Assembly: GCA_963815195.1 (NCBI GenBank)
Contig: CAWFGE010000009.1
Span: forward strand, 32,001-96,000
Source of the DNA: an uncultured Planctomycetaceae bacterium
GTDB taxonomy: Bacteria; Planctomycetota; Planctomycetia; Planctomycetales; Planctomycetaceae
Reading direction: 5' to 3'
Length of the DNA stretch: 64,000 bases
Below are positions 14,879 through 38,771 of the stretch, in pieces (position 1 is the first letter of the stretch; each line of letters begins with the position of its first letter). The notes under the pieces are model-generated. The model was not told where the DNA came from. It saw only the letters and a list, made by a program, of their open reading frames with translations, and made no database searches. The position numbers and the translations under genes are program-made.

Positions 14879-15286
14879 TTACGGCGGTTCGTTATTCAAA
14901 AGGCGGAAGTGGTAAGGATAATCCTCTGCGCGTTCCAGCTTTCCACTCTCGTAAAACTCCTCCAATTGATTTGAAATGGATTCTTCCGAATAATCTCCCC
15001 CTTCTATACTCTCTAGATACTGACATAAGCGCCATGCATCAAAAATATCCTCGCCATCAACGATGCCAACATGTGCATCTACTACGGTGGAATCTTTGTC
15101 GCATCGAAAACGGATTCCGACACCGTGGGGGTGAGCTTCCCAAGTTAATTCTTCAAGTTTGATATATTTGGGGACAGTGTCGCGTAGGTTGAGTTCGTCC
15201 AATTGTCCATTTAGATTTGCTTGGAGTACCTTCAGTAGCGCTCGTTGGATTGCAACGAATGTCTTAATTATCTCGATCGTTAGCAT
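14879..15286 (-). CDS. Putative immunity protein (DUF6896-like) of cassette 4
   Basis: Starts about 10 nt after the ParB-like tip; W..HPHGVGIRF...VVDAH motif; AT-rich. Confidence 0.65.
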   Translation of the reverse strand: MLTIEIIKTFVAIQRALLKVLQANLNGQLDELNLRDTVPKYIKLEELTWEAHPHGVGIRFRCDKDSTVVDAHVGIVDGEDIFDAWRLCQYLESIEGGDYSEESISNQLEEFYESGKLERAEDYPYHFRLLNNEPP

Positions 15287-15296
15287 AGTATTTCCC

Positions 15297-16690
15297 TCAC
15301 CAGCGATGAGATAATCCCAGGTTTTCTGCAGCCTCAGCAGCTTGTTGAAGCAACTTTTCCCCATACTCTTCGCTGACTTCTTCAATAATGACAGGGATCT
15401 TTTTTATGCCAGCAGAACCAGCCGCTCGTGCTCGGTGATGGCCATCGATGATGATTTTTCGACCTTTGACAATTGCGATCCGAATTGGCTTAGTTGGATC
15501 AAAGCCCTTCGTTTTCATCGACTTCGTGAGTCGTTTGAGTTGGCTGCTTGAAAATTCGCTTTTCAACTGCCTTCCATAAAGTTCTCGTACTGGCACTAGT
15601 AATCATGTGTCCCCTGTATTATGCACCAAAACGCCAATCCGCCCACTTGGTAAACATGCTCCCCTTGGACTTCCAGGTTATAGACGCGCTCCGGCTTCTC
15701 TCGCGGTAAAGCCTTCACGAATTTGGCGGTATGGCCAGCGGCTTGCAGGGTTTCGCCGGGTTTGAGTTCGTCGGCGCGGATGGTTCTTGCCGGTCCACGC
15801 TCCAGAAGCGGTGGTTTGGTGTGCTGCCGATGGGTTTGGGTTGGCCTTCGATGTAAATGTCGATGACTTGGGCGGCGTCGTGGATGAACTTGCCGGTGAT
15901 GATCGGGCCATCGCCGGGTTGGATTTTTGGGCAGGGGCCGATGGACAGGACCAAGGCTTCGTCATTCACTCCGCACTCGGGAATCGAGATGTGGATCCGG
16001 CCGCCCGCTTTGGCTTGATTTAGATCCAGCCACCATAGAGGACGCAGCAATTCAATCCGGCAGTTCCCGCCGCTCTCTTTTTCCGCCCGCAGAATGATCT
16101 GCCGCCAGGTCGCGGAATCGACGTCCACGCCGAACCGGTCGTCGAAATCTCCCTTCGGATTATGGGCGTTCGTCCGCTCGCCCACTCGCACTTCGCCAAT
16201 GGGCTTGGTATGCGGGCATCGCTGCTCGGCAAGAGGAACGCGATCGCTAATAGCAAGGTAACAATCCCGCCCGTCACGCCGGCCCAGGCGCGGCCGACCC
16301 ACTTGGGCGGTTTCTTGCGCTGCCCGGTATCTCTCGGTTTTGGTTTGGGCTTGGTAGGAACTTCCATCGGAATGGCTTCGATATTTGCAATCGGTCGGGA
16401 AATCAGCGGCGGATCTTCCTCCAGTCTATCAAGCAAATGGTTCTCCGTGAACTCCCGAAAGACCGCAGCATGGGCGGTTTCGATTTCGCTTGGTTCAAGA
16501 ATCACCGGCCCCTCGCCAGCCAAGGCCGATTGCAATTGCCGAGTGCTCCGGCCCGGAACTAGTTTGTCGAACAGTTCTTCCGCCTTTTGCTGCATGTCGT
16601 TCACGTCGGCCTTTTCCGCGGCCAACGCGGCGAGCGTCTCCGTCAACGCCGCTTGCAAGCCCTCTTTGAGTTCCCTTGAGTTCCCTGAGC
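15297..16690 (-). pseudogene. Orphan toxin cassette 4: internally deleted pre-Hint region, Hint variant B, ParB/Srx-like toxin tip
   Basis: Homologous to the main toxin; VYNLEVQGEHVY..VLVHN (HN at 15623-15618); tip has IIDGHHRARAA; in-frame TGA at 15605-15603. Confidence 0.82.
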
Positions 16691-16703: not shown

Positions 16704-17189
16704 TCAATCGGTAAGTATCAGGCTTATAATAGTTTCTCGATCGTAAAATGAATTTGAAGTATCACCCACTGGGCATAAGTCATACGCTGCATAGGACCGA
16801 TCGAATTCCTGCACATCGAAGCTAACGCGAATCGACTTATACTTTGGCTTCACTGCGTTCACAGACAAAACCCGACCCTCTGTCCCATAGGGCGCCAGCC
16901 CCCGACCTGGGATTGTCACGACGACGACCGGATCCCCTACTTTGTAATGAGATAGAACGGACGCTAGTTCCGCTAAGGCTTGGCATAGCTGCGAATCCCC
17001 ACCATTACAATCCATCGCGAAAATCAATACACGGAGTTTCGCAGGGGAAAGGCTACATTTGAGGACTCGTTCGGTAGAATCAACGAACTCCGGCAAAGAA
17101 AATCCTTGTCCGCGAAGTACCGCTTCCAACCTTGCGAACTGAGATACAGTTAAATTGAGGGAATATTCATAATCCATCCAAATCACCAT
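16704..17189 (-). CDS. Putative immunity protein of cassette 3 (no recognisable family)
   Basis: 161 aa, AT-rich, directly downstream of the PIN-like tip. Confidence 0.65.
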   Translation of the reverse strand: MVIWMDYEYSLNLTVSQFARLEAVLRGQGFSLPEFVDSTERVLKCSLSPAKLRVLIFAMDCNGGDSQLCQALAELASVLSHYKVGDPVVVVTIPGRGLAPYGTEGRVLSVNAVKPKYKSIRVSFDVQEFDRSYAAYDLCPVGDTSNSFYDRETIISLILTD

Positions 17190-18738
17190 TAGCGACGTAC
17201 TACGGAGGACAGAGTTTCTTGAAATGTCCCGAATTTAGTCCAGAAGCTGGCATTTGTTTGCCGATCTTCTCCCAGATTTCGGGGTGATGCTTGCTGACAG
17301 CCTCAAGAGTCTCCATTGTAGTCTTCAATGCCTGCTCTGGACCGACCTTGTTGCTTGCACGAATAACTTGGTTCATCCCTTGAAGTGCTTGAAGTTTTCT
17401 GTGATCAAGATGCCGCCCTCTTTCTCAACCATCTCACGAATCGCATCGTCGGTCATTCCAGACGTAACCTTTTGCACATTATATCCCGCATTCGTGAGAT
17501 CGTCTACCATATAAAAGACATTCTCATCGATCCAGATCATGGGCAGTTCGCCTGTTGTGTTGTGGACGAGTACCCCCAATGGTGAAACTCGATAAACGTG
17601 TTCGCCTTGGATTTCCAGGTTGTAGACGCGTTCGGGGTTTTCTCTCGGGACGGCCTTCAGGAACTTTATAGTGTCACCGGCAGCTTGCAGGGTTTCGCCG
17701 GGTTTTAGCTCATCGGCCCGCACGAACTCTTGGCGGTCAACCGACCAGAAGCGGTGGTTGGGGGTGCTGCCGATGGGTTTGGCTTGGCCTTCGATATAGA
17801 CATCGATGACCCGGGCGGCGTCGTGGATGAACTTGCCGGTGATGATTGGACCATCGCCGGGGGCAATCGGCGGGCAAGGGCCGATGGAGAGAACCAGGGC
17901 TTCGTCGTTCACGCCGCATTCGGGAATCGAGATGTGGACTCGGCCGCCGACTTTGGCTTGATTGAGATCTAGCCACCAGGTTGGCCGGAGCAATTCGATC
18001 CAGCAGTTCCCGCCGCCTTCTTTTTCGGCCCGTAGAATGATTTGCCGCCAGGTCGCGGGATCGACATCCACGCCAAACTTGTCGTCGAAATCTCCTTTCG
18101 GATGATGGGCATTCGACCGCTCGCCCAATCGCACTTCGCCGATGGGTTTCGTGTGCGGCCCGCTGCTACTCGGCAAGAGAAACGCCAGCGCCAACAGCCC
18201 TGTCACTATTACACCGGTCAGCCCGGCCCAAGCGCGGCTGACCCACTTGGGCGGCTTGTTATTCTTCCTGGAACCTCTAGGCTTTGGTTTCGGCTTGATA
18301 GGCGCTTCCATCGGAACGGCTTCGATATTTGCAATCGGTCGGGAAATCAGCGGCGGCTCTTCCTCTAGCGTATCAAGAGAATTGCCTTTCGTGAACTCCA
18401 GAAACACTTCCGCGCGGGCGGCTTCGTCTGGCTCGACAACAACCGGCCCCTCGCCGGCGAAGGCCGGTTGCAATTGCGGCGTGCTCTGACCCGGGAAGAG
18501 TTTGTCGAACAGTTCTTCCAGCTTAACGAGCAGTTCGCCGAAGGGCATGAAGTTCGTCACGCTATTCGCGAAGGGGTCGAATTCCTCCGACAGGTCTTCC
18601 CCAGTCCCCAGCGAGTTTCCAAAGCGTTTCTTCCACAATTCGTAAGCCAGCGGACTGAGCACTAGAATCCCCAACGCGCTAACCACCAGAAACACCTTCA
18701 GCTTCTCGCCGCCCTCGCCGTCCAGGTGTACTTCGGTC
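17190..18738 (-). pseudogene. Orphan toxin cassette 3: TM-containing insertion, Hint variant B, PIN-like (DUF5615-type) tip
   Basis: Begins at TEVHLDGEGG, without the catalytic Cys. Tip WIDENV...GMTDDAI...GILITENFKHF continues past a 1-nt homopolymer indel near 17376. Confidence 0.8.
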
Positions 18739-18761
18739 TATTCGAAATGCGGTTCACAGTG

Positions 18762-18971
18762 CTACGCCAGAATCTCTATTCCAATTAATTCCTTTTTCGA
18801 ATCAAAATCCAAATAGACACGCGGCCCCTTATAGTCTTCAATAATCTCGTGAAGCCCTATCGTTCGGGCCACACAGCCAGATGTAGGTTGTTTCGGAAAT
18901 CCAGGTAACTTGATGTACGCAGTAGCTGTATTTGTTGAACTCGCTTCAAACTGAATATTATCAATTGACAT
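18762..18971 (-). CDS. DUF2283-like protein, putative immunity protein of cassette 2
   Basis: AYIKL...VARTI...YLDFD...LIGIEIL pattern. Confidence 0.75.
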   Translation of the reverse strand: MSIDNIQFEASSTNTATAYIKLPGFPKQPTSGCVARTIGLHEIIEDYKGPRVYLDFDSKKELIGIEILA

Positions 18972-19071: not shown

Positions 19072-21748
19072 TCAGTTGATTACTGTTCGCAAAATAGCTT
19101 TTCCTTTCTTAGTGAGTTCATAAACCGCCTTTCCATTTCCAAATGGCACCAAAATTGAATCAGCACGTCTTGGATCCGCAATTGTACCTACCGGTAAGCC
19201 ATTCTGGTTGATGGATTTGGTCAGAGATCTTAACCCCGCACTGGCTGACTTTGTATCAGGGGACACACCTCGTTGAAATGCTCGCTCTGCTGCATGCGCT
19301 ATATCTGAATTGAGTGCCTTTTTAAGTCGAGGTAAACCAAGATGATCTAGGAGGCTATCTGTTGCAGAATGTACGTTAGGCAGTCCGGGGCCGAGGGGAT
19401 ATGTATTATGCACTAATGCGCCAAGGTGGCCCACCCGGTAAACATGTTCGCCCCACACTTCCAGGTTGTAAACAACCTCCGGCCCCGCGCGGGGCGTGAT
19501 GCTTGTGATGCGGCAGGTGCCTTGCAGGCGGGTGTGGACCTGTTCGCCTTCTTTGAGCATTTCGGCCGGGACGAATTCCTGGCGGTCTTCTGACCACCAC
19601 AAATGGTTGGGGGTGGTGCCGATTTTTTCCCGGCCGTCGATTTCGATGTCTAGGATGCGATTCACATGGTGACGGAAGATGCCGGTGACCAGTGGTCCCT
19701 TGCCGGGAGCGGGCTCGGGACAGGGATCAATCGAAACGATCTTCGCTAACCCGACCACTCCCATTTCGGGCATTGACAGAGGGACGGATGCACATGGTTG
19801 GGCATCGGCGGCCGCGATCCATTGCGGGGATCGCGCCAGATCGAACTCAACCTCTCCCCCGTTGGGTTTGGGAAGGCGGAAATGAATGAGCTTCCATGTT
19901 TTCGGATCCGGTTGCGGCAGATGGGGACCGACCTCCGAGCGAATCGGATTTCGGCTTTCCGTGCGGTCAAAAATCTTGACTTCGCCGATGGGCTTGGTAT
20001 GCGGCGCACCGCTTGGCAACAGGAATGCCAGCGCCAAGAGCAGCGTCACAATCCCGCCCGTCACGCCGGCCCAAGCGCGGCCGACCCACTTGGGCGGCTG
20101 ATTTTTCTTCCTGGAACCTCTAGGCTTAGGTTTTGGCTTGACGGGCGATTCCATTGGAACGGCTTCGATATTTGCAATCGGTCGGGAAATCAGCGGCGGC
20201 TCTTCCTCTAGCGTATCAAGAGAATTGCCTTTCGTGAACTCCAGAAACACTTCCGCGCGGGCAGCTTCGTCTGTCTCGACAACGGCCGGTCCTTCGCCCG
20301 CAAAGGCCGGTTGCAATTTTGCAGTGCTCTGGCCGGGGAAGAGTTTGTCGAACAGTTCTTCCAGCTTAACGAGCAGTTCGCCGAAGGGCATGAAGTTCGT
20401 CAAACTATTCGCGAAGGGATCGAATTCCTCGGGCAGGTCTTCCCCGACGCCCAGCGAGTTTCCATAGCGCTTCTTCCACAATTCGTAGGCCATCGGGCTT
20501 AAGATCAAGATCCCCAATGCGCTCACGACCAAAAACACGTTCAGCTTCTCGCCGCCTTCGCCATCGAGGTGCACTTCGGTTTCGTACACGAAGCAACCCC
20601 TTCCTGTGAAGATCTTGCGAACGGGGCAGGGCAAGAGCTCGGCCACCGCTTTGCCGACCGCCGGGAGTTTGAGGAACTTGCTCACTGGCCGGGCGATGAA
20701 CGCGGCCGCTTTGAACAAGCCCTTCCCCACGAAGCCGACGAGTTTCCCGAACCCCGCAGCAACCGGCGTGAAGGAGAACGCCAGCGTCATCGTGCCTTCA
20801 AACATTCGGCCGCGAGCGAAGTAAATCGTGGCATTGACTCTTTCGATCCAGTTGCTGATCGCCGTCCCTACGACCGGCACAAACGACGCCTTCAATGCCA
20901 AAATGTGCAGTTCGTTTTGCAACACGTCCAGCACGTATTCGTTGGACTCCTTGATGAACGTGCCCACGAAAATTTCGGTGTAATGCAATTGCTGGTTTTC
21001 GAGCGATTCGATTTTGGCGGACTTTTCCAAGTCATATTGGTCTTTGAGGGCCTGGGAATCGGCTATCACCAGCGACATCGTGGCCTGGTTGGAATTGATC
21101 CGGTTCGCCACGTCGCGTTCGGCGGCGTCTTCTTGCCGATGAGCTTCCGCGGCTTCGTCCGCCTCGCGGGCCCGCAGGTTGCGCTCGGCGGAGGTCAAGT
21201 CGTGCTTGGCCTGGGCCATTGCCCGGTTTGCCTGGGCCTGGGCCTGCTGAAGTGCCAAGGTCGCCTGGTTTTTGATGTCCTGGAGGATCGCCTGGCCTTC
21301 GGTCTGCTCCTCAGTCAACTCGGCAATCGCCTTTTGCAGCATGTCGTTGACGTCGGCCTTTTCCGCCGCCAATACGGCGAGCGTCTCCGTCAAGGCCGCT
21401 TGCAAGTCCTGTTTGAGTTCCTGGAGGGACTGCTCGGCATCCTTGGTCAGCGAGAGGAAGCGGCCGATGGGGGCGACCGGCAGGGCCGGGTCTTCCACGA
21501 ACGGCGAGCGGTTGTACTCGGCTAACACGCCGATGACCTGGGCGCTGATCGTGGCCAGCGAGCCGAGTTCGGTGCCGGTATAGATCTCGCCGATCATGTC
21601 GTAGGCGTCGAGCGAGCCGTTGATGTCGTTCCAGACCCACACGTGCCAGATGCTGCCGTAGCCGTCGTTGGGGTCGGGATCGGCGGAGGGATCGCCCCCG
21701 GTGCCCGCCGTGGCCCAGCCCATAAACGACCCGTAGGCCACCAGATAG
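19072..21748 (-). pseudogene. Orphan toxin cassette 2: ~2.3 kb near-copy of the main gene 3' region (coiled coil, PT-TG-like, TM-split Hint A) with a different 110-aa tip
   Basis: 19405-21748 closely matches 22661-25010 and diverges immediately after HN (19410-19405); no convincing start or export signal. Confidence 0.87.
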
Positions 21749-24700
21749 GAGCAACCTTTAAGCTCATCCGTCGAAGCTACGCGCTTCCATCGGAGTCGGG
21801 CCAAACACGTGAAAAAACGTCTTCGAGTATCGGATCGTTGTTGTCTAGTGGGCACCAATCGTCGGGCGGGGTAGCAGATTCAATCTCGTCCCACGTTCGT
21901 TCCTGGAGTTTCTTCCAATCATCATATTCCCATCCAGAGTAAGAAACGAAGCTGGGCGTGGGCCACCTCGTTCGGGCATCGATGCGTCGTTCTCGAAGCC
22001 TCTTGCCACGATTCCATCCGTGTCGCAAGTACTGGCATAGAGTTCGGACAAGTGCCTCCATAAAGGCCTCACGAAGCTTTCCCTTGCTGTCTGCGTCAAC
22101 ATAGAAGGCTTCCTCGAACTGCCTTAGTGCGAGAAATTTTGCATCGTCTGCGCCTGCTGTCTGGCGCAGACTGCCGAACATTTCACCAAAAGACTCACCC
22201 CCTCTCGACATTACAAATGCAAACGCATCATCATAGCCCAAGCGTTGGACTAATGAACGAAACCTCTGTTGCCAATCTGAATTCCAAGCTTCCATCGCCA
22301 TGTCAATCCTCAATCAGCGTAGGGCAGGATCGGCACGTCCCTCAGTCCCATTTCTCGCATGAACCTGTACCCTTCCTTCCAGATTTCCCTCGGTGTCAAT
22401 TGTCGACCCGCCTTCAATTCGGCAGCCGCGAGTCTTTCCATCATTCGTTCGTTCCACTTCATCGTGTGTAAAGCCGAGTGGGTTCCTTGGTCAAGAGCAA
22501 CGGTGACTTTATCGATGTCAAAGCCGCGATTTCTGAACCACTGACGATTCTCCTGGGGAAAGATGTGGTGACGCGGGGGACGCGCGCCGCCAGCACCAAC
22601 CTTGTTCGTGATTCGCAGATTACGTTTTGCTAATTGCTCCGTGACGTCGTCGGGATATACATTGTGCACTAACGCGCCCAGTTGGCCCACCCGATAGACA
22701 TGCTCTCCCCAGATTTCCAGGTTGTAAACAATCTTCGGCCCGGCCCGGGGCGTGATGTTGGTGATGCGGCAGATCCCGTGCAGGCGCGTGTGGACCTGTT
22801 CGCCTTCTTTAAGCACTTCGGCCGGGACGAATTCTTGGCGGTCTTCGGACCACCACAGGTGGTTGGGGGTGGTGCCGATTTTATCCTGGCCGTCGATTTC
22901 GATGTCTAGGATGCGGTCTACATGGTGGCGGAAGATGCCGGTGACCAGCGGCCCTTTGCCGGGAGCGGGTTTGGGACAGGAACTCATCGAAAGCACTTCG
23001 GCTAAGCCGACGACGCCCATTTCGGGCATTGATAGAGGGACCGATGTGCCGGGTTTAGCGTTCGTGGCCGCGATCCATTCCGGGGAACGCGCTAGCTCGA
23101 AATCGATTTCTCCGCCTTCGGGTTTCGGAAGGCGGAAATGAATGAGCTTCCAAGTTTTGGGATCCGGTTGCGGCAGATGGGGATCGACCTCCAAGCGCAC
23201 CGGATTGCGGCTTTCCGTTCGGTCAAAGATCTTGACTTCGCCGATGGGCTTGGTGTGCGGCCCGCTGCTTGGCAATAGAAATGCGAGCGCCAACAGCCCC
23301 GTCACTATCCCGCCCGTCACGCCGGCCCAGGCGCGGGGAATCCACTTGGGCGGTTTGTTTTTCTTTCCCGAATCTCTCGGTTTTGGTTTCGACTTGACAG
23401 GCGCTTCCATTGGAACGGCTTCCAGATTCGCAATCGGTCGGGAAATCAGCAGCGGGCCTTGCTCCAGTGTATCCAGCAAATGGTTTTCCGTGAACTCCCG
23501 AAAGACTCCAGCATGGGCGATTTCGTCTGCGTTATCTCTTGGGGGACTCGCTACTTCACCCGCGAAGGCCGGTTGCAATTGCGGCGTGCTCTGGCCGGGG
23601 AAGAGTTTGTCGAACAGTTCTTCCAACTTGGCGAGTAGATCGCCGAAGGGCATGAAGTTCGTCAAGCTGTTCGCGAAGGGGTCGAACTCTTCGGGCAGGT
23701 CTTCACCGATCCCCAGCGATTTTCCATAGCGTTTCTTCCACTGGGCGTAAGCCATCGGGCTTAATATCAGAATCCCCAAGGCGGTGACGACCAGGAACAC
23801 ATTCATCTTCTCGCCGCCCTCGCCGTCGAGGTGCACCTCGGTCTCATAAACGAAGCAACCCCTTCCCGTAAAGATTTTGCGGATGGGGCAGGGCAAGAGC
23901 TCGGCCACCGCTTTGCCGACCGCCGGGAGTTTGAGGAACTTGCTCACTGGCCGGGCGATGAACGCGGCCGCTTTGAACAAGCCCTTCCCCACGAAGCCGA
24001 CAAGTTTCCCGAACCCCGCAGCAACCGGCGTGAAGGAGAACGCCAGCGTCATCGTGCCTTCAAAATACCGGCCGCGAGCGAAGTAAATCGTGGCGTTAAC
24101 TCTTTCGATCCAGTTGCTGATCGCCGTCCCCACGACCGGCACAAACGACACCGCCGTTGCTATGAAGTGTAGTTCGTTTTGCAACACGTCCAGCACGTAC
24201 TCGTTGGACTCCTTGATGAACGTGCCCACGAAGATTTCGGTGTAGTGCAATTGCTGGTTTTCGAGTGTCTCGATCTTGGCGGACTTCTCCAAGTCGTATT
24301 GGTCTTTGAGGGCCTGGGAGTCGGCTATCACGAGCGACATCGTGGCCTGGTTGGCGTTCACGCGGTTGGCCACGTCGCGTTCGGCGGCGTCTTTTTGCCG
24401 ATGGGCCTCGGCGGATCCGTCCGCCTCGCGGGCCCGCAGGTCGCGCTCGGCGGAGGTCAGATCGTGCTTGGCCTGCGCCATCGCCCGGTTCGCCTGGGCC
24501 TGGGCCTGCTGCAGCGCCAAGGTCGCCTGGTTTTTGATGTCCTGAAGGATCGCTTGGCCTTCGGTCTGCTCTTCGGTCAAGTCGGCAATCGCCTTTTGCA
24601 GCATGTCGGTGACGTCGGCCTTTTCCGCCGCCAATATGGCGAGCGTCTCCGTCAGCGCCGCTTGCAGATCCTGTTTGAGTTCCTGGAGCGACTGTTCGGC

Positions 24701-25010
24701 ATCCTTGGTCAGCGAGAGGAAGCGGCCGAGGGGGGCGACCGGCAGGGCCGGGTCTTCCACGAACGGCGAGCGGTTGTACTCGGCTAACACGCCGATGACC
24801 TGGGCGCTGATCGTGGCCAGCGAGCCGAGTTCGGTGCCGGTATAGATCTCGCCGATCATGTCGTAGGCGTCGAGCGAGCCGTTGATGTCGTTCCAGACCC
24901 ACACGTGCCAGATGCTGCCGTAGCCGTCGTTGGGGTCGGGATCGGCGGAGGGATCGCCCCCGGTGCCCGCCGTGGCCCAGCCCATAAACGACCCGTAGGT
25001 CACCAGATAG
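19405..25010 (-). repeat. Direct repeat pair 19405-21748 / 22661-25010, with partial copies at 17556-18738 and 15618-16690
   Basis: Long stretches of nucleotide identity visible directly. Confidence 0.92.
21777..22313 (-). CDS. Cognate immunity protein of the main toxin
   Basis: Overlaps the toxin stop. W...W..R....V...GY and PP.DW.PL..ND.IL resemble, from memory, partners of myxobacterial DUF2380 toxins. Confidence 0.75.
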   Translation of the reverse strand: MRIDMAMEAWNSDWQQRFRSLVQRLGYDDAFAFVMSRGGESFGEMFGSLRQTAGADDAKFLALRQFEEAFYVDADSKGKLREAFMEALVRTLCQYLRHGWNRGKRLRERRIDARTRWPTPSFVSYSGWEYDDWKKLQERTWDEIESATPPDDWCPLDNNDPILEDVFSRVWPDSDGSA

Positions 25011-28000
25011 ATGATGTTGTCAAAGGCGTACAACTGGGCGTCGATCGTGCCCACGGCCCAGGCGCTGAGGTCGTCCCCGGCGGTGATGTTCCCCGACAGC
25101 GTGCCGTAACTGATGAGGTACACGTCATCGCCGGCGGAGCCGAACGCGGTGAGGGCTTGCGTGGCCATCAACTGGGCCAGTCCGTCCACGTCCATGTTGG
25201 TGACGCTCAAGAAGCCGAAGCTGGTGGCGTTGAAGTTGCCGCCCGCAGTCACGTCGGCCGTGACACCGAGCCCGAAGAGTTCCACACTCCCGCCCGCGAT
25301 GATCGTGATATCCAGGAAACCGCCGATGCTGGCGGCCAGCACCTCTTTGGCGGCGCTCGCATCCACGTCCGCATTGCCGTTGCTGAGCACTGTCACGGAC
25401 TCGTTTGTGGAGGTGAGCGAAAGCGAGGTCAGCCCAGCCTCCGACCAGGCGAACACATCATCCCCGGCGGTGGCGGTCGTGGTGGTGATCTGTCCCAGGG
25501 CGAACAAGTTCAGAGTGCCACCGACCGAGATCTGCATGCTGTTGATGGCGTCGAGCGATCCCACGTCCGCCGATCCGCCCGCCGTGACGGTCCCGGTGAG
25601 CGAACCCGTGGCGAAAACGTCGGCTTCGCCGGCCGTGGCGATAATGTCCCCGTTGTAGCTGCCCATCACATTGACCGAGGCGGACTGGCCGGCCGAGACG
25701 CTGCCATCCGCATCGCCGAAGGCCAGGAGGTCTGCGAAATCGCCCGCATCGATCGTCCCGGAGTATGTGCCCAGCGCAGTGACGGAAGCCGAGCCACCCG
25801 CGGTCACGTCGGATTCCAATGTCTGCCCGTAGGAAGCCACGGTCGCATCGCCGCCGGCCGAGACATTCCCGGTCAAATCGGACAGGGAGACGACGTCCGC
25901 ATCGCCGCCCGCGTTGACATCGCTGCTAAGGTTGCCGACAGTCGTCACGGTGGCCTTGCCCGTGGTGGCGGTGACGGTTTGGGACAACTCTCCGAGCACC
26001 CAGACGTCCGCGTTCCGTCCGCCCGTGACCGTGGCCGTCAAATCGGAGTATACGGTGACGGTGGCATCCTGGCCTGCCGAGACGGAGGCCACCGCCATTG
26101 AATACACGGTCACGTCCGCATCCTGGCCCGCCGTGACGGGATTGGAGAGTTGGCCGAAGGACCACACGCTCGCATTGCGGTCCGCGTCCACATTGGCTCC
26201 GACCTCCCCCCACACGGTCGCGTCCGCATCGCGGCCCGCATCGATCGCCCCCGACAGATCGGAAAACGTCCACACGGAAGCGTCCAAGCCGGCCGTCACG
26301 TCGCCGTCGACGTTTCCGCCGGCCAGAACACTGGCGGATCCCGCCGTGGCGGTGACATTCCCGGAAACAACAAGGATTGCGGAAGCGGACGCATTCCGCC
26401 CGCCCATGACATCCGCACTGATGTTTTGCAGCGCGACCACCAAGGCATCCCGGCCGGCCGTGATGGCGGCATTGGAATCGGCATGGGTGGTCAAGGACGC
26501 ATCGCGGCCTGCATCGATCGTCCCTGCTGCACTGACCGTGCCTTTGGAGAACACCGAAGCGTCCTGTCCAGCGTCAACCGCCGCCTGGAGGGCGCCAAAC
26601 GTTGAGCACGTTGGCATCGCCCATTTCTGCGGTCACGGCGGCCGTCACATTGCCAAAGGCGAACACGCTGGCATTTGCGCCGGCCGTCACGGATTTCGTA
26701 AGTTGTGCGGAGGTTGTGACCGTGGCATCTCCCGTGACGGCGGTGATCGTGCCGGAAATATCGCCATCGAGCGCCGCGCACGGTGGCATCCGTCCCACCC
26801 TCGATCGTCGCCGAAACCGCTTTGCCAGCGAGCACGCTCGCGGATTCCGCGGCGTTGACCGAACCGGCCACATCTCCTTTGGCGGCGACGCTCGCGGAAC
26901 CCCCGGCGGACACGGTGCCATTGAAATCTGCCAGGGAGATCACATCCACGCCGCTTCGATCGGACGTGTATGTGCCCGTGGTGGCGGTTTCGTCCTCGGC
27001 GAGCGACCCGGCGTCGATGTATTCCCGCGCTGGAAGGTTCCGGTCAGATGGTTTTGAGCGAAAACGTCCAGCCCCCCCTGGTAACTCCGCACATCCAAAT
27101 CCACGGTGTCCAAACCGGTGATCGTGATCTGATCGCGGGCCCGGACTTTGCCGTCGAGCGTGCCGAACACGACAAGCGTGGCTTCTTGGGGATCGCTGCC
27201 GGAAGACGAGGACGAACCGGCACAAGCCTCCAAATTCGCGTTCCCTCCCGCGAACACGTTGACGGAACCTTGTTGGGCGATGCCGACCGTGCCATCGTTG
27301 ATGTTCGTCGCACGGAAATGCCGACATCCCCTTCTTTGGATGTAATGTTGGCCTTGAGGTCCGTCGCTCCGGTGACGCTGGCATCCTGTTGGGCGGTGAT
27401 GGTCGCTCCGCTGATCGTTTTATTTCCCCAAAGCGATGCGCTCCCGGCGTCTGGAGGTGATCGTGATATTGGAAACGGTATCCCAACCGGTCACGGAAGC
27501 GTATTGCCCCGCCTCGACTTCCCCACCGCTCAGTTTCCCTTGGGCGATGATGGTGGCATTCCCGGCGGCGTCCGTCTTGGCATCTGTGACCGTTCCAAAC
27601 GCCTCAATTTGGATATCGCCCGAGGATGTGACGGTGGCCCTGTGATCCCCGTGCACGGTCATGCTGGCGACAGCGACGAAACCGGGCGGTGGTGGATCAG
27701 TGCCCTCGGTGCCTGCGTTGATCGTGCCGCTCAGATTGCCCCAGACATCCAAGCTGATACTTCCGGAAGCATTCAGCGTAGCATTCAAATCGCCCATCAC
27801 GAGCGCATTGATGTAGCCATTCTGCCCGTGACGCTGACGCCTTGTTCGACCGATTCCCAAGAGGTAATATCCACAAACCCGCCGGCTGTGATCGTGGAGT
27901 CTTTTATCCCCTCACCGACTTCGATGGAGATTGCACCTTCATCTGCCGTGACGTTCCCATTCAAGTCGGCCCAACTCTTTACGGCGACGCCACCGCTCGA

Positions 28001-31000
28001 ATGAACCGTGCCGGTGATCGACTCCAGCGCACGGTTGCGATCCAGGACTCATCATCACCTGTGGTGGTCAAGTCGCCTTTCATGGCCCCGTACGTCATCA
28101 AGTCAATCGACGTATTTGCGGTAATGTCAGCAGAGGAGTCCCCCACGGCTTTCACCGTGACCGAATCCGCATTGGTGATGGTGCCCTTTAATGCATTGGA
28201 TTCAATCTTCACCTCCCCATCGGCCTGCGAGTTGAGATCCACGTCTCCCGCCGCGTAGACGGTGAGTTCGCCGACGTTACTCCCAATGTTGGTGTTGCGG
28301 ATCCCGTCATAGGTAACGAGTTCGACTTTAGAAACGAGATACTGTTCGCCATACGAGGGATTGATGTCGGGAGCCTCAATGGTATCTTTTGCGATCAGCC
28401 AGGCCTTTCCGACAAAGCGCAACTTTTTGACGTCCATCTTGCCCGTGCTGAAGACAAATGGCGAGGAAGTGGCAGCTTCGATGAGTTCCGTGCGGATGTA
28501 ATTGCTCTCCACCGTGGCAGTTATTTCTGCTTCGACTTTGGATGTAATGGTTCGCATGGCCTGGTCCGTGACGGACCCTTTCTTGCTGATCACGTCGCCC
28601 TTGGAGTCTTGATACGCCCAAATGTTGGTGTCGCCTTCGCCTTGCACTTTCTTGGTGACGGATCCCCACGAAATCACTTCGACGCTCCCCGCTTTTCCGA
28701 TGACATCGCCCGTTACGGAACCGTAGGCTGTGATGATGACGCCGCCCCCATTCGCGGTCACGTTGTCGCTCACCGTATCCCAGGATTCAAGAGTGATCGA
28801 ACCCGTTTGGGAAACAATTTCGCCTTCAATCGGTCCCAGGGCCCAGACCACCCCCAGGCTTCCGCCGGCCTCAATCCCGTTGGAGATCTTGCCGAACACC
28901 GTGACGTCGCCGATGTTGCCACCCGCCTTGATGTGGCCTTCAATTTGCCCCTCGATCCCGAGAAAGGGATATTGTCCGGTTTGGGCCGCGTATAAGACCC
29001 AGGCCTCTTTGACCCGGTAACCATTCCAAACCCGCCTGCGGCAGGGCGTCATTGCTGTAAACGGATTCCTGGGCGGAAACCACCATTCCCCCAAGGCCAG
29101 AATTGCTCCGATATTTCCCGTCGCAGAAACGTCGTTTTTGATGCTGCCGCCGCGGGAGGTTCCCGAAGTGATTTCCCCAATATCTTCACCCGAATTGACG
29201 CTCGCGCCAATATTCCTTACCGGCCTGGACGAGCCCGATATCTCCTGAGGTTGTTTTAATAGTTCCATTGATGTTTCCGGCGGTCGATGTGATGCCAGTC
29301 AATGTCTGCGCATCCGCATCGCTTCCGATCCGCTCGTCCGCCGAAATCGACCCGTTAATATCATAAGTCGCTGAGATCGAATCGATGTTGTTTCCGGCAG
29401 AGATCTCGGCATTGATGGATCCAAAATAGGCCGTCACGCTTCCAGAGATCCCTCGGAGGCGGTGATGGTGCCCGTGATGGACCCAGATCCCGTGTAGCCT
29501 CCGTACCCGCCCGCTTCGATGGCGTCAATATCCGTCTGGGCCGTGATGGTGGCATCTTCGATGGAGCGGTCGGCGTCCACGGACGTGATTTTCCCCGCCG
29601 TGCTTTCAATGGTCGGGGAACCTGCAGAACCTGTAATGGACCCGCCGGTCACCAGGTAGGCGGCCGCCTCAACCTCGCCAATGTCGCCCACCGCGCTGAT
29701 AGTCGAATTGGTAATATCTCCGCCGCGGCGAATCAAAAATCGTCCCCGAGGATCCACCGGCACAGCCGGCTTGCACTTTGGCAATGCCGCCCGTGTCGGC
29801 CATAATATCCCCGGTCAGGTTCCCGCCCGCGGTCACATGATCGGTAATGGACACCGCGCGGATGCTTCCCGTAATGTCCCCACCGGCCTGTACATACTGA
29901 ATGTCTCCCCGGCGGTAATCGTGCTTTCGATTTTCTGGTCCGCATCGACCGTATCGATTGTCCCGCCGGCCGTAATGTCGCCCGTCAAATCGTCATCCGC
30001 ATCGACGGTAGTGATGTTTCCATCCGCATCGACCGTCATGGTGAGATTGCGTCCAGAATCGAGCGTACCGATCCCGCCGGTCACATCGATGCTGCCGGAA
30101 AGATCGAGCCCGGCGGTGACGGAGGTAATCCCCGCACCCGAACCAGTCGTGGATATTATCGCATCGACAGTGCGTCCCGCGGTAATTGTCCCAATTGACG
30201 TCCCCGCAGTGATTGTCCCGCGGACATTCCTGGTGGCGGAAACCGATCCCACCGCGTCACTGGCCGTGAGGCTCACACCGCTTCCGAAATCTCGCACTGG
30301 CCGAGGTCACATCTCCGTCTGTCGCATCGAGTGAAGCGGTCAAAGTTCCACCGGCGTCCACCGAAACAGACGCCGCAGTGATGGTGCCATCAACATCCCG
30401 TCCGGCGGTGAGGCTCAATCCTCCGTAGCCTCCGTACCCACCCGAGGAACTGCTGCCGTCCGCCGTCAAGTCCGCTTTGCTGTCCCACCCGACCGTCACC
30501 GAGTTGATATAATTCCCGGCGTGGATCAAAGCCGTGCTGTCGATATTGTCCGCCACAGTGATGGTGGAGATATCGCCGGCGGCATCAACCGTCCCCGCGA
30601 CGCCGCCATACGCCTCGACTTCCTCGATGTCCCCACCCGTCGCCTTCACGCTGCCTGCAGACGTCAAATCGCCGTCCACGTGCACTCCTTGATATATCGT
30701 CCCGCCTGCCTGCACTTGAGCGCTGATGTCCCCGCCAACCCAGACGGCAAAGTCGCCCGAATTGGGATCCCCAATGTCTCCCCCGGCGGTCAGATTCGCG
30801 CGTGATGTCCGTATTCACGTGCGTGTTGAATATGGCCCCTCCCGCATCCACTGTGCTATCCAGGACGTATAGGCTGAGGTCGCTGATATCTCCTGTAGCA
30901 TCCACCGATTGGGTTTGCCTGGCGGTGAGGGAGCCAATATCTCCGCCAGCGGTCACAGTCCCGATCTGACCGAAGCCACTTGCCGAAGACCAGCATCCGC

Positions 31001-34000
31001 CATATCCGCCATAGGCGCTGGCGGAGGTGACATCGCCCGTGGCCGTGATATTGCCGATGTTGTCGGCGGACACAGAAACGTTGAGCCCGGAAACGTTTGT
31101 GACATTCCCACCTGAGAAAACAGAAACATTCCCGCCCGCCGAGACGTCATTGACAATGTCCCCGTCCGCACTGAGGGACAAGTCGCCGCTGGAGCTGCCA
31201 TTCCACGTGAGTTGTCCGCCGGAAACACTCACGCCCACATCGGAACCGCTTCCCGAGACGGTGACGGTTTGCCAGCCCCAATCATCGACATAGACCGTGT
31301 CACTGCCCGTATTCGTGACAAGGAGCAGGCCCGGTCCTGCCCAAGATTCGCCGGCGTCCAACTGAAGATCCTCCGGGTCTGTGGCCAATTCGGGCCGTTG
31401 CAAAGAACAGACCAATTCGACCTGATAGGGGCCACTCGTGGTATATCCGTCGGTAGTCACGAATTCGAAACGTCGTCCCGCTTCCGGTATAGCTGAAGGT
31501 GCCGTCCGGGCTGAGGCTCACCCCGTTCGCCGAACCGTAGATTTGTGCGGTAACATGATCTCCGTCCAAATCCGTCTCCACATCCAACACATCCCCTGTA
31601 ATAGTTCCTTCCAACGCTCCATAGCCATAGCTGCCATAACTTCCGACTGTCTCGAAATAATCCTGAGCGACGGCCCGCCAGGGGCCGACAGAAAGCGAGT
31701 TGTCAACCTGTATATCGACGGTTTGGGTGGAGCTAATACTGCCCTGAGGATCGAGGACGTGAAAGGTAAAACTGTCGCTGCCCACATAGCCGGGTGTGGG
31801 CGTATAGTCGAGATCTGCCGTCGTCGTTAAGCGCGAGACTTCCATGGGAAACGTCCGTGTCCAGCACGGCTTTGAGCAACGTGCGAACCTCGTCAGTGGC
31901 GTCCTTTAAGAGGCCCTGACCAGGGCCGACGCTGAGCGACTGGTCATGATATACATTGTAAGATTGGTTGCTGGCTGTCGGCACATTGTTATTGACGGTG
32001 ATCTCGGCCGTTTGCAGGGCCGTCTCCGCCAGACCGTCCGAAGCTTTGTAGGTAAACGATGTCGTGCCTTGAAAATCGTCGGCCGGAATGAACACAAACG
32101 ATCCATCCTCGCGAAATTCCAATTGTCCGTCCGCTGCGGGGACGTTGCCCACGAGTTCCGCTTTCAGGACGTCTCCGTCGTCATCGGTGTCGTTGGCAAG
32201 CACCCCGGATTCCGCCGCGACAACCAACGGCGTCTGGGCCGTCGTGGAATAGCTCTCACTCACGGAACTGCCGTAACCTGCTTGTCCTGCCTCGGGCGCG
32301 CGTATTGGTCACGTCAATGGTGACGGTGACGAAATCGGAGACTTCAAAAGCGTTCGTGATTTTATACCGAAACGTAACTTGTCCCGTGAAACCGTCGTCC
32401 GGGGTGAAAACAAAGGATCCATCCGGGTTCATTTGCAAGGTTCCGGTACTCGGTGCCTCATAATCGTCAATCCAAACCACGTCGCTCAGCAGGCCGAAAT
32501 CATTGTCCAACACATTCCCCGTCAGCACGTGATCGTGGAGGATCGTGTAGCCGTCCGCCGCAGGCTGCAAGACGAACACGTGAATGTTAGCCGTCGCTGT
32601 GATGTCGTCGTCAAGTTTGTAGGTAAAGGAATCATCGCCTCCGAAACCGGCTGTTGGGGTGTAGGTGAAACTCCCGTCCGAGTTAAAATGCAACGTGCCG
32701 TTGGAAGGTCCGCTGACCAGTGTGGCGTCCGGGAGATTCCCGTCGGTGGCCCAGTCGTTCTTCAACACGCCTTCCGCAGCGGAAACGGTGAGCGAACTAT
32801 CCGCCATGACGCGGTATCGGTCGTCATACGCCGCAACTCCCGGTCCCTTGGCAACCAGCGTGACCAGGACATCGTCGCCATAGCCCGACCCGCCATAAGC
32901 GCCCACGCCATCACTCAGCCGGTATTTGAAGAGATCGAACGAAAGCCCTCGCCCTGTGGAATTCGGCGTGTAAAGCCAACTGCCGTTTCCTTGGTCGGTC
33001 AATGACCCGTATTTTGGTTGTTCGGCAATTTCCACAGTCATCGCATCGCCATCAACGTCCATGTCGTTGGCCATCAGCATGTCCGCGGTAATCGTCAAGG
33101 TTCCATTTTGGGGAAAGTCGAAGACGTCCATCCGCCCGAACGGCGCCGTCTTTTCCACTTCGAGATCCACCTCGACCGATCCCCCGTATTCGGCGCCGTC
33201 CCACGCGCGATACGTGAAGGAATCGTCGCCCGCCCAATGCGAATCTGGAACATACGTAAATGATCCATCGGCACTGAAACTGAGGCTGCCATGTTCTACG
33301 GTCGTGACAAGATCGGCCACGAGCGACCCCTGGTCCTCCAGGTCGGCATCGAAATCGTTGGACAACACGCCCGCGGCCGCCGAAACGGTCAGCGTTTCAT
33401 CGTGGGTCAAGCGATAGTTGTCCGAGAGCGGTTCGGAGCGGCATTGCGGACATCGATCGTCACCAACGCTTGGCCGCTTTCATCGACGCCGTCCGTCAAC
33501 TTGTAGGTGAAGGTTGTGACCCCTGTCCAAGTGGGCGACGGGCGAGTGTAAGTAAATGTGCCATCCGAATTGAGCGACAGCGAGCCTGTGGAGACACCGC
33601 TCACGAGAATCGCACTGATGGGATCGCCATCGGGATCCCAATCCTCATCGGTACCAATGACGTTGCCCGTGGTGCTGTTTGTAGAATGGTGAAAGACAAA
33701 GTCGTCGTCATAGGCATAAGGCGCATAATTTCGCACGTCGATTGTGACGGTGACCGGATCGCTAAACTCGGCGCCGTCGCATCACGCGATAGGTGAAAGA
33801 GACCGATCCGGAATAGCTCGAATCGGGCGTGTAAGTGAACGTGCCGTCAGAATTGAAGGCAAGCGATCCATAGCTGCCGTAGCCGTACCCGCCGATGTCG
33901 TCCACCAACTCGGCCTCGACGGTATCACCGTCCCAGTCCGTGTCGTCCCACAACACGTCGCCGCTGACCGCGACGCCGTGCTGGGTTTCAAAATAATTGC

Positions 34001-35766
34001 CGTGGGCCCAGGGGATATTGTTCCACACGTCGATCGAGACCGTGGCGGTTTCACTGTCGTCGGCTCCATCATTGAGCTTATAGGTAAAGCTGTCGCCGCC
34101 GACGTAGCCTGCGTTCGGTGTATAACTAAATGTGCCAGCGGAATTAAACGAGAGTGTCCCATGAGATACGTCCGAGACGAGGATTGCCGTCAAGGAATCC
34201 TGGTCACCGTCATAATCGTTGGCAATCACGCTTTGGCCTGCAGGAAGAGAACCATCGTGATGAACCCGAAAGCTATCGCCCACAGCCACGGGAACCTTGT
34301 TTTGCACGATCAATCGCACGGAGGCGCTCGAAGTTGTCACGCCGTCACTGATCTCGTACGTAAATCCGTCCGTGCCCACAAAACCTGGATTCGGAGTGTA
34401 CTCGAACGTACCGTCCGCATTGAAGGTCAAGGTTCCATTGGAAACACCTCCCCCATAGGAGAGCGACGCCGTGAGCGAATCGCCGTCGTCGTCCCAATCG
34501 TTCGCCATCACCGTCTCTCCGGACAGCGTTTCTCCGTGATGCAAGCGGTAATGGTCCGAAGCGGCACCAGGGACCGTATTCCAAACGTCGATCGTCACCC
34601 CCACGGACCCGCTCGTGGCAAGACCGTCCGATACGGAATAAGTAAAGTCATCTTCTCCGACGAATCCGGCATTGGGCGTGTAGCTGAAAGAGCCGTCTGC
34701 GTTGAACGTCAGGCTGCCGTGCGAGGGGCCACTGTCCCAAGTGGCCGTGAGCGTTTCCGTCGGATAATCGACATCGTTGGCCAATACGCCTGCCCCTGCA
34801 TACGAACCAGCGTGGTATCATGGTGGACGTGATACAAGCGGCTGTTGCCTTGCGGGGCTTCGTTCCAAACATCCAGCGTGACCGTTCCCGTGCCCACTTC
34901 CGTGCTGCCATCCAAGACGCGATAGGTAAAACTGTCCTCGCCAAGATACCCGGCGTCCGGCGTGTAGCTGAAACTGCCATCCGTACTCAACGTCAATGTG
35001 CCGTCGGCGGGCCCGCTTACCGTTTCCGCCGTCAGCGTTTGGCCGGGCGTGGCTTCCCAATAGAGAAGTACCCCCTCGTCCGTATTCACGGTAAGCGTCG
35101 TGTCGTGATGGGCCTCGAAGAACCGCGGGCCGGCGGTCGGCGCGGCCGTCCCCACGGAAAGCGTCACCGTCGCCTGGGTCTGTGCTCCTGCGGCATCCGT
35201 TAGCTCATACGTAAAGGAATCTTCTCCCTCGATCCCGAATCCGGAGTGTAGGTGAAACTTCCGTCGTTATTGAGGGTTAGCGTTCCGTGCTCCGGATCGA
35301 CAACGACCGAGGGCGTTTGTGCATCGCCGTCAAAATTGCGGTCATTGGCCAACACCCCAGAGCCGGCGGATATTCGTGAGAGTTTGGTCCACGTCGGTCG
35401 AATACGAATCGCCTAAGGCCCGAGACGCTGTGTTCGTGACGTGGATGAGAACATCTTCCTGGTCGGTCTCCGCCCCGTCAGAGACTTGATAAGTAAAACC
35501 GTCTTCTCCGACAAATCCGGCATTGGGAACATAGGAAAAGCTGCCGTCAGCGTTTAGCGTGAGCGTTCCATCTGAGGGGCCGCTGACCAATGTCAGCGTG
35601 AGAGGATCCTCGTCGGCATCAAAGGAGGCAGCCAATACGCCCTCGCTCGCGTCCACAGATAAAGTCGAGTCATGTAATGTAGAATAGACGGCGGGAGCCG
35701 CCACGGGGGCGGAATTTGTCACTTGCAATGTGACCGAAACCGGCGGCGTCGTGCTCGCCCCATCAT
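22310..35766 (-). CDS. Giant adhesin-type polymorphic toxin 1 (about 4,480 aa retained; 5' end missing; many indels): Big_9/VCBS-type Ig repeats, beta-helix stalk, coiled coil, PT-TG-like, TM-split Hint, DUF2380-like tip
   Basis: GVLANDxD / DGSFTYTP repeats at 31.3-35.7 kb; (V/I)xAGGD repeats at 25-31.2 kb; GCFVYETEVH at 23857; VHN at 22666; tip HHIFPQ..R.WF..RGFDID...H..LH...WN. Confidence 0.85.
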
Positions 35767-35836
35767 CGGGCAGGCATCAGTCCCAGAAACTAAGCCACTG
35801 GGCAGGCATTAAAACAAGGCCAAGCATACCAAACCG
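35767..35836 (+). repeat. GCCACTGGGCAGGC element-end motif at the toxin-1/Hen1 breakpoint
   Basis: gtcccagaaactaagccactgggcaggcatt (35780-35810) plus a partial copy cgggcaggcat (35767-35777); matches 56858 and the 58.5-58.8 kb cluster. Confidence 0.8.
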
Positions 35837-35868: not shown

Positions 35869-36786
35869 CTAATCGCCTTGGGTTATCGCGAATAGTTTTC
35901 CTTCGCCGCAGCCGAGGTCGAGAACCGTACGGGCACCGCTGGCCCGGAGAGCAGCCATGACCGCTCCGTGGCGTTGATCGTTGAGACTCAACGGCATTTC
36001 CAACGACTCCTCTCGCTCGTCTGTCGCCGCTTGATCTTCGGTCGATTCAACATCTTCCTCCTCGACCAGCCGGGCCAGCGCCTGCCGGAACAGGCTGGAT
36101 CGGTGCTTCAGGTAGCGGCGAGTGATTTGCTCCTTCTCCGGGTGCGAGGCCAACCAGCCGCCGCCCTTGGCCAGCAACTTTTCCAATTCGTCTTCGCCGA
36201 CGAAATAATGCTTCTCGTTATCAAAGACCGGAATGAGGACATACAGGTGCGTCAGCAAATCGGAGAGCGTCTTCGTGCCGCTGATCGTGGCCGAGTAATA
36301 AGGACTTTCGCCCCACTCGGGAAATCGTTCATCGAGCGGATGCCCAACGGCTTCGACCGTGTAGCCCAGCGGCTCGAAGATTCGATGCAGGAAGTCTCTC
36401 GCCGCCACGGACTGGCAGGACATCAAACCGGCCGTCAGCGGAATCGGAGTCGTGACGAGTTCCGGTCGATCTTTGCAGCGTCCACCTAAAGCCGTGCCGA
36501 AGACCTGCGAGATCGCCACGCTCATGAAGGACGAGGCGACGTAGGGGCGGTCATTGACGTAATGGCCGAGCAGAAAACTCTGATCCCGCCCCCTTCGACG
36601 CACCATGCCCACCGGGTCCACGTCGAGCAACAAACAAGCCGTGCAGCGATCCTCTGTCGCCTCAGGGTAAAAAACGTGTGCCTGCCCGAAGCTCAAGTCG
36701 AAGCTCTGAAAGCGATCCGGGTGCTTGTGCAGCAGAAACCCAAGATCGGTGGCTGGGTTGTGTTCTGTGGAGATTGTGAGCAGCAT
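35869..36786 (-). pseudogene. hen1: 3'-terminal RNA ribose 2'-O-methyltransferase Hen1, C-terminally truncated
   Basis: MLLTIST...ATDLGFLLHKHP, YVNDRPYVASSFMSVAI, HLYVLIPVFD..KHY; ends just after motif I LDLGCGEGK. Confidence 0.9.
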
Positions 36787-36826
36787 TGGGCACTCGTATT
36801 CATCGTTTTTGGTGCTGAAGGCGGGC

Positions 36827-37956: not shown

Positions 37957-38693
37957 GACCAAATATCCACACCCTCGGCGAGTCGGTTTGGCACCATCTG
38001 CTGATGTTGCCAGTGCGTGCTTTGCTTGATCTTTTCTACGAACTCCGGCCGCACAAATTTCGCCCGCCCGGTCACGACGCCCTCGGCTTCCGTCCGCAGA
38101 TACAGCCCTTCCATCAGATTGTCGATTCGTTTGGTGGCCGGGTTCTCAAACTGGCTGTCGAATTGCGAAGGTCCGATCAACTCGTCGAGTTCACAGCGGT
38201 CGATGGAACCGGTGTGAATCACGGGTACGGTTTCGATCCCTGATCCTTCCAATAACCCCAACCGCTGCTCCAGATCAAGGAACGCCTCTTGCTGCTTATC
38301 GTAAATGTCGAACTCGAAAAAGTAATGAGTGAGTTGGCAGTAAAGAATCGAATGGCGGGCGTAGACCCACTCCCCGAACAGAATAAACCGGTTTTCCAAC
38401 CGTTCCTCCAAAACATACCGCTTCACCGCCGCCCATTGCTTGAAGAGATCGTACTGCGGATGCATCCCCTCGGTGACCAGATGGCCCCGGCATTGGAGGA
38501 CCATTTGCCCCTCGTCGGAAAAATGGATGCCGACGTTCGTGCCATCGATTTTCTCCTCGACGATCAACGATTCATCAGCGATGAACGCTTTGGATTCCGC
38601 TTCGTCCAGATGTTTGTCGTCATCGGTCCCCTTCGAGCCAAACAAATGGGGCGTCCGGGGATATTTCACGAAATCTCCGTGTGAAGTGCCCAT
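37953..38693 (-). CDS. ATP-dependent RNA ligase family protein
   Basis: KYPRTPHL, motif [37 protein letters not shown]. Confidence 0.9.
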
Positions 38694-38728
38694 TGCAATA
38701 CCCCTGAATTTGAGAAACTCATCCAAAC

Positions 38729-38771
38729 AAAAAAGCCCACCCGGTGAATTGCACAACCACACCGAGCGGGC
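38729..38771 (-). terminator. Intrinsic terminator between the SEC-C gene and the RNA ligase
   Basis: Minus strand gcccgctcggtg...caccgggtgggc followed by TTTTTT. Confidence 0.7.

Follow-up and report, generated by a model that had tools for sequence, protein, structure and literature searches.

Within a 64,000-nucleotide stretch of DNA from an uncultured Planctomycetaceae bacterium (the window), the 3' part of a carrier-toxin gene (22310..26617, minus strand, 1435 aa) encodes an intein-like Hint domain that is split by two predicted transmembrane (TM) helices. Judged from the sequence and a structural model, the carrier ends in the first cysteine of the Hint (Cys1), a single Hint strand and the helix TM1, and the toxin module is made of a basic tail, the helix TM2, the rest of the Hint and the toxin. 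The two are joined by a dispensable loop, as in the window, or are encoded as two genes. This TM-split layout is a widespread family of Planctomycetota. We consider it very probable that the halves assemble in the periplasm, also in trans, and we see an even chance that the domain is a naturally split, inner-membrane-tethered member of the BIL-A (bacterial intein-like, type A)/PT-HINT group whose splicing would ligate the toxin to the carrier and free both from the membrane.

All parts of the window gene lie on the minus strand, with Ala/Gly-rich repeats and a helical pre-Hint region preceding the split Hint. HintN, delimited by model, alignment and conservation, comprises only Cys1 and the first beta strand, about 10 residues (23828..23857), Cys1 being Cys921 of the open reading frame (ORF; codon start 23857). 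It is followed by TM1 (23747..23800), a predicted stop-transfer anchor (N out, C in), by a predicted cytoplasmic loop (23333..23746) with basic stretches at both ends (23720-23740 and 23345-23395), in which the gene split of relatives occurs, and by TM2 (23273..23332), a predicted signal anchor (N in, C out). HintC (22661..23254, 198 aa) contains TxxH (22859-22873), VYNLE (22715-22729) and the terminal His-Asn (22661-22666; Asn1319, 22661-22663), and the first residue after the terminal Asn (+1) is Val. A short acidic-hydrophobic motif lies in the 23600-23650 region of the loop. The helices were called from hydropathy, charge bias and AlphaFold2 helices; in 19-residue windows across the 1435-aa ORF, TM1 (2.22) and TM2 (1.91) are the two top hydropathy peaks, and the ORF of a second toxin in the window, whose ordinary contiguous PT-HINT of 138 aa (41727..42140, minus strand) serves for comparison only, has no peak of 1.5 or more. 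A lipoprotein anchor at TM2 finds no support in the window copy, which has no Cys there.

An earlier note on this DNA, made from its letters alone, had described a gap of about 200 codons after the Cys strand, a two-TM hairpin within it, K/R-rich loop sides of both helices, intact TxxH, VYNLE and terminal HN, and recurrence of the insert in orphan cassettes, and each of these could be located. The gap to the next strand, TKPIGEV, is 201 residues, versus about 15 in toxin 2, and the whole Cys-to-Asn span is 399 aa, versus 138 aa. A second insert, a small beta domain of about 80 aa inside HintC (22937..23182), had been missed. Profile searches see only part of this domain: Pfam PT-HINT covers model positions 44-136 of the window copy at 17.5 bits, under its cut-off of 27.7, no NCBIfam model covers the Cys-to-HN segment, and the ESM Atlas gave PT-HINT clusters at 0.84 or less, which we take as a lead only. 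At 399 aa the window copy does not conform to a contiguous PF07591 domain of about 135 aa, and relatives pass on the C part alone. Between the main copy and a complete second copy in the window (cassette 1, below), silent changes exceed amino-acid changes in the Cys strand (5/0 codons), TM1 (8/2) and TM2 (6/1), and not in the loop (26/32).

The Cys-to-Asn segment was modelled by AlphaFold2 with 64 aligned relatives. Confidence (predicted local distance difference test, pLDDT) is 97 at residues 1-10 and 91-98 for blocks in 201-399, and falls below 50 at 89-167; helices appear at segment residues 13-44 and 172-194. The earlier note had proposed to ask of such a model whether a Hint horseshoe forms from discontinuous parts, and it does: model residues 1-399 match the BIL of Clostridium thermocellum (CthBIL4, 2lwy 1-135) with Z 16.4 and 1.7 A over 130 of 138 residues. 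The alignment runs over the whole 2lwy domain from residue 1, and therefore the distant Cys strand would complete the horseshoe; as modelled, the two discontinuous parts close into a complete Hint fold. Tetrahymena BIL2 (PDB 6y75) is the second structural match (Z 16.3), the Hedgehog Hint scores Z 14.8, and a Foldseek search agrees with the BIL match. Across 23 relatives the HintN residues C, F, T and V are invariant, as are Cys1, the block B TxxH and the terminal His-Asn.

The beta insert on its own gave no match at Z 5 or above among 48,161 chains, with Tudor-like and intein rows tied at Z about 4 (best 4.1); it has a near-invariant Trp, Gly and Cys-Pro. The same beta insert is found in unsplit relatives (Cys-to-HN 210-213 aa), and the TM split is also seen with a short 134-aa HintC that lacks it, so the TM insert and the beta insert are independent.

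Among representatives clustered at 50% identity, 4378 relatives of the segment reach E 0.001 or better; many are ordinary Hints. Among the best 150 of these, 20 have the Cys strand 166-257 residues upstream (one is cassette 1 of the window), 98 are short proteins with TM2 and without the Cys strand, 18 are short and without a scored helix, 10 are longer proteins without the Cys, and the remaining 4 begin within HintC. From named genomes, 68 loci were retained (66 titled Planctomycetota), which contain 116 HintC hits. Of these, 19 were too incomplete to class; the other 97 divide into 69 that stand alone, 19 that are fused, 8 truncated where the locus ends and 1 lacking helices. Stand-alone TM2-HintC-toxin genes, mostly with their own start, are more numerous than carriers. 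The only locus titled outside the phylum (L025, a Chromatiales metagenome-assembled genome) sits on a 3.8-kb contig and may reflect misbinning or transfer. Family matches occur in 13 of 41 near genomes and, with 10 candidates scored per genome, in at least 23 of 301 across the phylum. We rejected an assembly artefact as the origin of the split Hint: the same genome holds an intact 4261-aa gene with a divergent copy, and the layout recurs in many genomes. A single origin of the TM insert was not adopted, the four unsplit relatives lying with long branches on one side of a weak branch (77).

The split Hint stands directly before a variable C-terminal toxin, itself followed by a small immunity-type gene, and tandem toxin-immunity pairs lie behind the full gene as in classical orphan cassettes. 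The window toxin (22310..22660) is SitA6/DUF2380-like (PF09533, 30.9 bits against a cut-off of 26.3; TIGR02269, E 1.7e-6, under cut-off). Its stop is overlapped by a candidate immunity gene (21777..22313, minus strand), proposed from position, for which neither Pfam nor NCBIfam gave a family match. Relatives P0023 and P0058 have an AHH nuclease behind the Hint. Several carriers begin with a leader that we take to be of the LExRxLL type (NCBIfam LEPR-8K, under cut-off).

The membrane topology was examined on 39 fused inserts of 153-278 aa, which are not independent, near-copies and one window copy being included. Both helices are present in 37 of them and a third in none, against 67 of 7800 shuffled inserts, which rejects chance hydrophobicity. 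Lysine and arginine are biased to the loop side of TM1 in 39/39 and of TM2 in 36/39, with means of 0.5 before and 5.7 after TM1, and of 3.6 before and 0.9 after TM2. Under the positive-inside rule, an established regularity, this bias would place the loop in the cytoplasm and the Hint halves, the carrier and the toxin in the periplasm, the orientation that the earlier note had predicted. The loop itself varies from 57 to 173 aa and shows low conservation.

The split Hint of the earlier note, with its two predicted TM helices, is supported as anatomy; its single-gene picture was incomplete, as a two-gene form also exists. Among carriers with the Cys strand and TM1 within 1.3 kb of a HintC, classed by script, the carrier stops before HintC and a new gene (start, basic stretch, TM2, HintC, toxin) comes next in 6 of 25 from named genomes and 5 of 11 from metagenomes. 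This gives 11/36, or 10 distinct of 35 with locus L211 repeating L070; the window copy itself is fused. Two further cases, L161 and G017, were seen by eye outside the script count; the Rhs carrier of the latter runs without a stop over at least 4066 codons. In a third layout (L189:3-3815 with L188:1-486) the carrier has both TM helices and a linker without HintC, and its stop overlaps the start of the next module, which has its own TM2. The stop, a purine-rich leader and the ATG stand at the same aligned places in L040 and L221, at 504 of 670 identical columns (75% DNA identity). A quick tree of 60 rows groups L040 with Gemmata algarum L063 as a two-gene clade (branch support SH-aLRT 96) and requires at least 4 changes of the two-gene label. 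One further candidate, G003, was discarded as an artefact, being frameshifted throughout.

Among the stand-alone modules, TM2 is kept in 65 of 69 (including six two-gene first modules) and in 44 of 50 from metagenomes; where a stop lies at most 35 codons before TM2, an in-frame ATG is present in 23 of 26 modules, against 7.7 expected. Shine-Dalgarno-like matches (at least 4 bases) were found in 26 of 65 modules, versus 15 of 186 internal Met codons. The later modules of L030 and L063 have starts like that of the first. The property of orphan cassettes of having no own start or export signal thus fails family-wide. Two intact TM2-HintC-toxin modules lie far from any carrier seen, one in Kolteria novifilia (L050:5695-6915, about 4.5 Mb away) and one in the genome of the window (G000:C9:2475-3911, about 50 kb away).

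As the system also occurs as two genes, the Hint halves could meet in trans. A two-chain model of the HintN strand and HintC of L030 scored 0.90, against 0.18 for the best of 3 controls. This lies above a threshold that 116 of 157 solved complexes and 2 of 215 mismatches attain, a result that resemblance to solved inteins would by itself lead one to expect. Agreement between runs is at least 72% of contacts, the partner pLDDT is at least 61, and the contacts are at TxxH and the C-terminal residues.

Mechanistically, carrier and module would be inserted with the Hint halves and the toxin facing the periplasm, where the membrane would hold the halves together and the Cys strand would complete the fold. 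Cys1 would then form a thioester with the carrier, Asn cyclization would free the toxin N-terminus, and the freed toxin amine (or a +1 Ser/Thr/Cys) would attack the Cys1 thioester. The carrier-toxin would depart as a single chain and both Hint halves would remain in the membrane. Stand-alone modules would be anchored, exported precursors awaiting any compatible carrier, because HintC without its strand should be inactive. Splicing of BIL-A by aminolysis, with the freed amine attacking the Cys1 thioester, is described as possible in the accessible text of PMC4031507. Three considerations favour ligation. First, ordinary pre-toxin Hints are proposed to free the toxin inside the target, according to the available part of PMC3482391, which is out of reach for a Hint that stays in the membrane of the producer. 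Second, the toxin sits where the carrier, up to 10,696 aa long (in G094), is nearest the membrane, and could travel with it only if the two were joined. Third, two-gene loci provide no connection between toxin and carrier other than such a joining. Going further, several separately expressed toxin modules, some of them encoded far away, may be trans-spliced onto giant adhesin or Rhs carriers in the periplasm, a proposal to which we give somewhat less than an even chance.

Several observations weigh against these proposals. In vitro, cleavage dominates for BIL-A according to the available text of PMC4031507 and PMC7664689, and one review (PMC7765530, available text) states that A-type BILs cannot ligate. 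The +1 residue is Ser, Thr or Cys in only 57 of 148 representatives, the window copy having Val. Two of the two-gene cases, L030 and L037, are doubtful, with other frameshifts in their carriers, and L030 provided the docked pair. The count of modules with Shine-Dalgarno-like matches is inflated, the best of several Met per module being taken. Fused genes show no general internal start, a Met with a Shine-Dalgarno-like leader occurring in 3 of 19; an internal start as a rule in these genes was not supported, there being no Met excess before TM2 (12 vs 11 of 19; 10 vs 7 of 19). Finally, the three window cassettes start at varied points in homology arms, like ordinary recombination orphans.

The most serious alternative keeps the same split, membrane-tethered Hint, acting in cis or in trans, and limits it to cleavage, so that carrier and toxin are shed and travel apart or non-covalently bound. 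All the architectural evidence fits it, as do the in vitro prevalence of cleavage and a +1 residue that is not a nucleophile in 91 of 148. However, it leaves the toxin unlinked to the carrier with its hydrophobic pre-Hint region, and no conserved carrier-binding segment is seen at the diverse toxin starts, where the three residues past the Asn were viewed. We regard it as possible and on the unlikely side. The outcome assumed in the earlier note, in which adhesin and toxin are simply set free from each other, would be one of two, and ligation appears to fit the anatomy at least as well.

Trans meeting could also take place with TM2 as a cleaved signal peptide, leaving a soluble periplasmic HintC-toxin and a membrane that presents only HintN. 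Consistent with this, TM2 has a basic n-region and begins no more than about 30 residues into most short forms, and many relatives have Ala-rich linkers after it. On the other hand, only about 6 residues, with no Ala-x-Ala site, separate TM2 from HintC in the window copy, and TM2 is internal in fused forms; we regard this variant as improbable.

It is less probable still that only the fused genes work, with the stand-alone modules as silent recombination stock and the two-gene forms as decay or assembly errors. The window cassettes do resemble recombination orphans, the assemblies of L030, L037 and G003 have other frameshifts, and Pseudomonas orphan cdiA-CT modules lack a start and ribosome-binding site in the available text of PMC4725963. 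Against this, the junction is conserved in diverged Gemmataceae-type loci, modules are enriched in starts and leaders, stop and start overlap in L189, and the carriers of L063, L070, L189 and G017 are open for more than 1000 codons up to the split. Both modes, modules with their own start and recombination orphans, seem to exist. Gating of processing by a cytoplasmic signal through the loop, which the earlier note had raised, is very unlikely and finds no support, because the loop is variable (57-173 aa, poorly conserved), unstructured in the model and cut by a stop in about 30% of carriers; the acidic-hydrophobic motif that might speak for it was picked after the sequences had been seen. This motif is present in 22 of 39 loops, compared with 10% of shuffled ones, and recurs in the tails of some two-gene carriers.

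Downstream of the window gene, three cassettes on the minus strand, each with a different toxin followed by a small gene, carry copies of the insert, and all three look like classical orphans. Cassette 1 (19072..21858), with a long homology arm from 21748, is complete from Cys through TM1, loop and TM2 to HintC (19405-20595) and ends in another toxin; its candidate immunity gene (18762..18971) is proposed from position and a weak DUF2283 match. Cassette 2 (17373..18739) has lost Cys1 and keeps TM1, loop, TM2 and HintC before a third toxin, its insert copy beginning at residue 6 (span 17559-18737). Its candidate immunity gene (16704..17189) is placed by position, with no family match in a Pfam scan. 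In cassette 3 (15297..16674) half of the loop, TM2 and a frameshifted HintC remain, the copy beginning in mid-loop (15632-16604), and the toxin position is occupied by a ParB/Srx-like domain (15297-15596; TIGR00180, E 7e-9, under cut-off). The candidate immunity gene (14879..15385) was again assigned by position, an NCBIfam scan giving no family match.

Upstream, the carrier continues in many frame pieces with cadherin/Ig and Gly/Ala/Thr repeats (26618..35776, minus strand); its start was looked for in the window and not found. Single short-read contigs of depth below 5 show indels relative to the window at 27450 and 28959-29080, so some of these frame breaks are probably assembly errors; the contigs do not cover the split Hint itself. 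A second giant toxin locus (41169-54425, minus strand), also in frame pieces, has cadherin/Ig repeats, the ordinary PT-HINT and an AHH nuclease, with a LExRxLL-type leader at 54233 and an Imm11 gene at 40575-41135. RNA-repair genes (35869-38762, minus strand) separate the two toxin loci and immediately precede the first carrier fragment that can be seen, namely an RNA ligase (PF09414) and a Hen1 N-domain (PF12623) apparently cut short at 305 aa; they possibly provide defence against RNase toxins or reflect an assembly join. A D5-like primase/helicase gene (59832-61889, plus strand), a mark of an integrated mobile element, lies upstream of the toxin loci.

If the proposal is correct, a natural split Hint acts outside the cytoplasm, at the membrane, in interbacterial conflict, and forms a built-in single-turnover sortase by which one carrier gene fields several toxins at once without DNA recombination. 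The findings suggest that planctomycetes attach exchangeable toxins to a carrier as finished proteins, and not only by DNA swapping. They make it possible to test whether in vivo BIL-A/PT-HINT domains can splice or do no more than cut, since the junction peptide of a two-gene locus gives a yes or no answer, and whether "orphan" toxin cassettes are expressed and put to use in the absence of recombination. They would also assign some of the giant genes of planctomycetes a role and a step of export. Split Hint domains are under-annotated because only the C part matches Pfam, and domains with an N part of about 10 residues and loose +1 needs would be of interest for protein-ligation engineering.

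Among known systems, PT-HINT/BIL-A domains (PF07591; CthBIL4, 2lwy; Zhang et al. 2012, PMC3482391) share with the split Hint the fold, Cys1, TxxH, His-Asn and a variable +1 residue, and also the place before a variable toxin, the immunity gene and the cassette arrays. The known members are contiguous and soluble. In the planctomycete proteins, 153-278 aa with two TM helices separate the first strand from the remainder, or another gene encodes that strand, and the toxin modules carry their own start and anchor.

Sortase and exosortase signals likewise combine a TM helix with a basic tail, as found at two-gene carrier ends, where the Cys that would form the thioester lies upstream of the anchor. 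Sorting-signal models stayed under cut-off (LPXTG_anchor 13.3 vs 15.9 bits in L063; LPxTATN 16.2 vs 32 in P0008); the window copy matched none, and no LPXTG, PEP or GlyGly model reached its cut-off in the sequences scanned. Unlike with a sortase, catalysis here would be carried out by the substrate's own Hint strand together with the HintC of the cargo, for a single turnover.

Naturally split inteins are known to keep a +1 nucleophile. We do not class the planctomycete domain among them, because a conserved +1 Cys/Ser/Thr and an interrupted conserved host enzyme are both lacking, the flanks being variable adhesin or Rhs carriers and variable toxins. In the available text, split inteins rebuild one conserved enzyme, their hosts serving DNA synthesis and repair (PMC2677866), and the N parts of atypically split natural inteins are 15-37 aa (PMC13014065). 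Shared with them, as far as these sources go (PMC13014065; fractured genes, PMC2677866), are the two genes, here in the 10 distinct carriers given above, the very short N fragment and a fold that, in the two-chain model, is completed on association. Membrane anchors are absent from those inteins, whereas in the planctomycete system a single carrier would meet a choice of C partners at the membrane.

Tetrahymena BUBL1 BIL2 (6y75), close in fold, is a natural BIL with N-extein transfer to amines in the accessible part of PMC8616854; unlike the split Hint it is contiguous and cytoplasmic and forms isopeptide bonds with ubiquitin-like domains. In the Hedgehog Hint, similar in fold, a Hint-made thioester is likewise opened at a membrane, where an external nucleophile resolves it (PMC5874633, available text); it is contiguous, transfers to cholesterol, and has neither His-Asn cleavage nor a TM insert. 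MafB Hints are contiguous in the available text of PMC7738311, and that of PMC5874633 names no split BIL. We found no literature description of a TM-split Hint, in line with the earlier note, within a search that covered subscription journals thinly; the architecture tables of PMC3482391 could list such proteins. On present evidence the system is a new variant of Hint-processed polymorphic toxins, and demonstration of trans-splicing would make it a previously unseen way of loading toxins.

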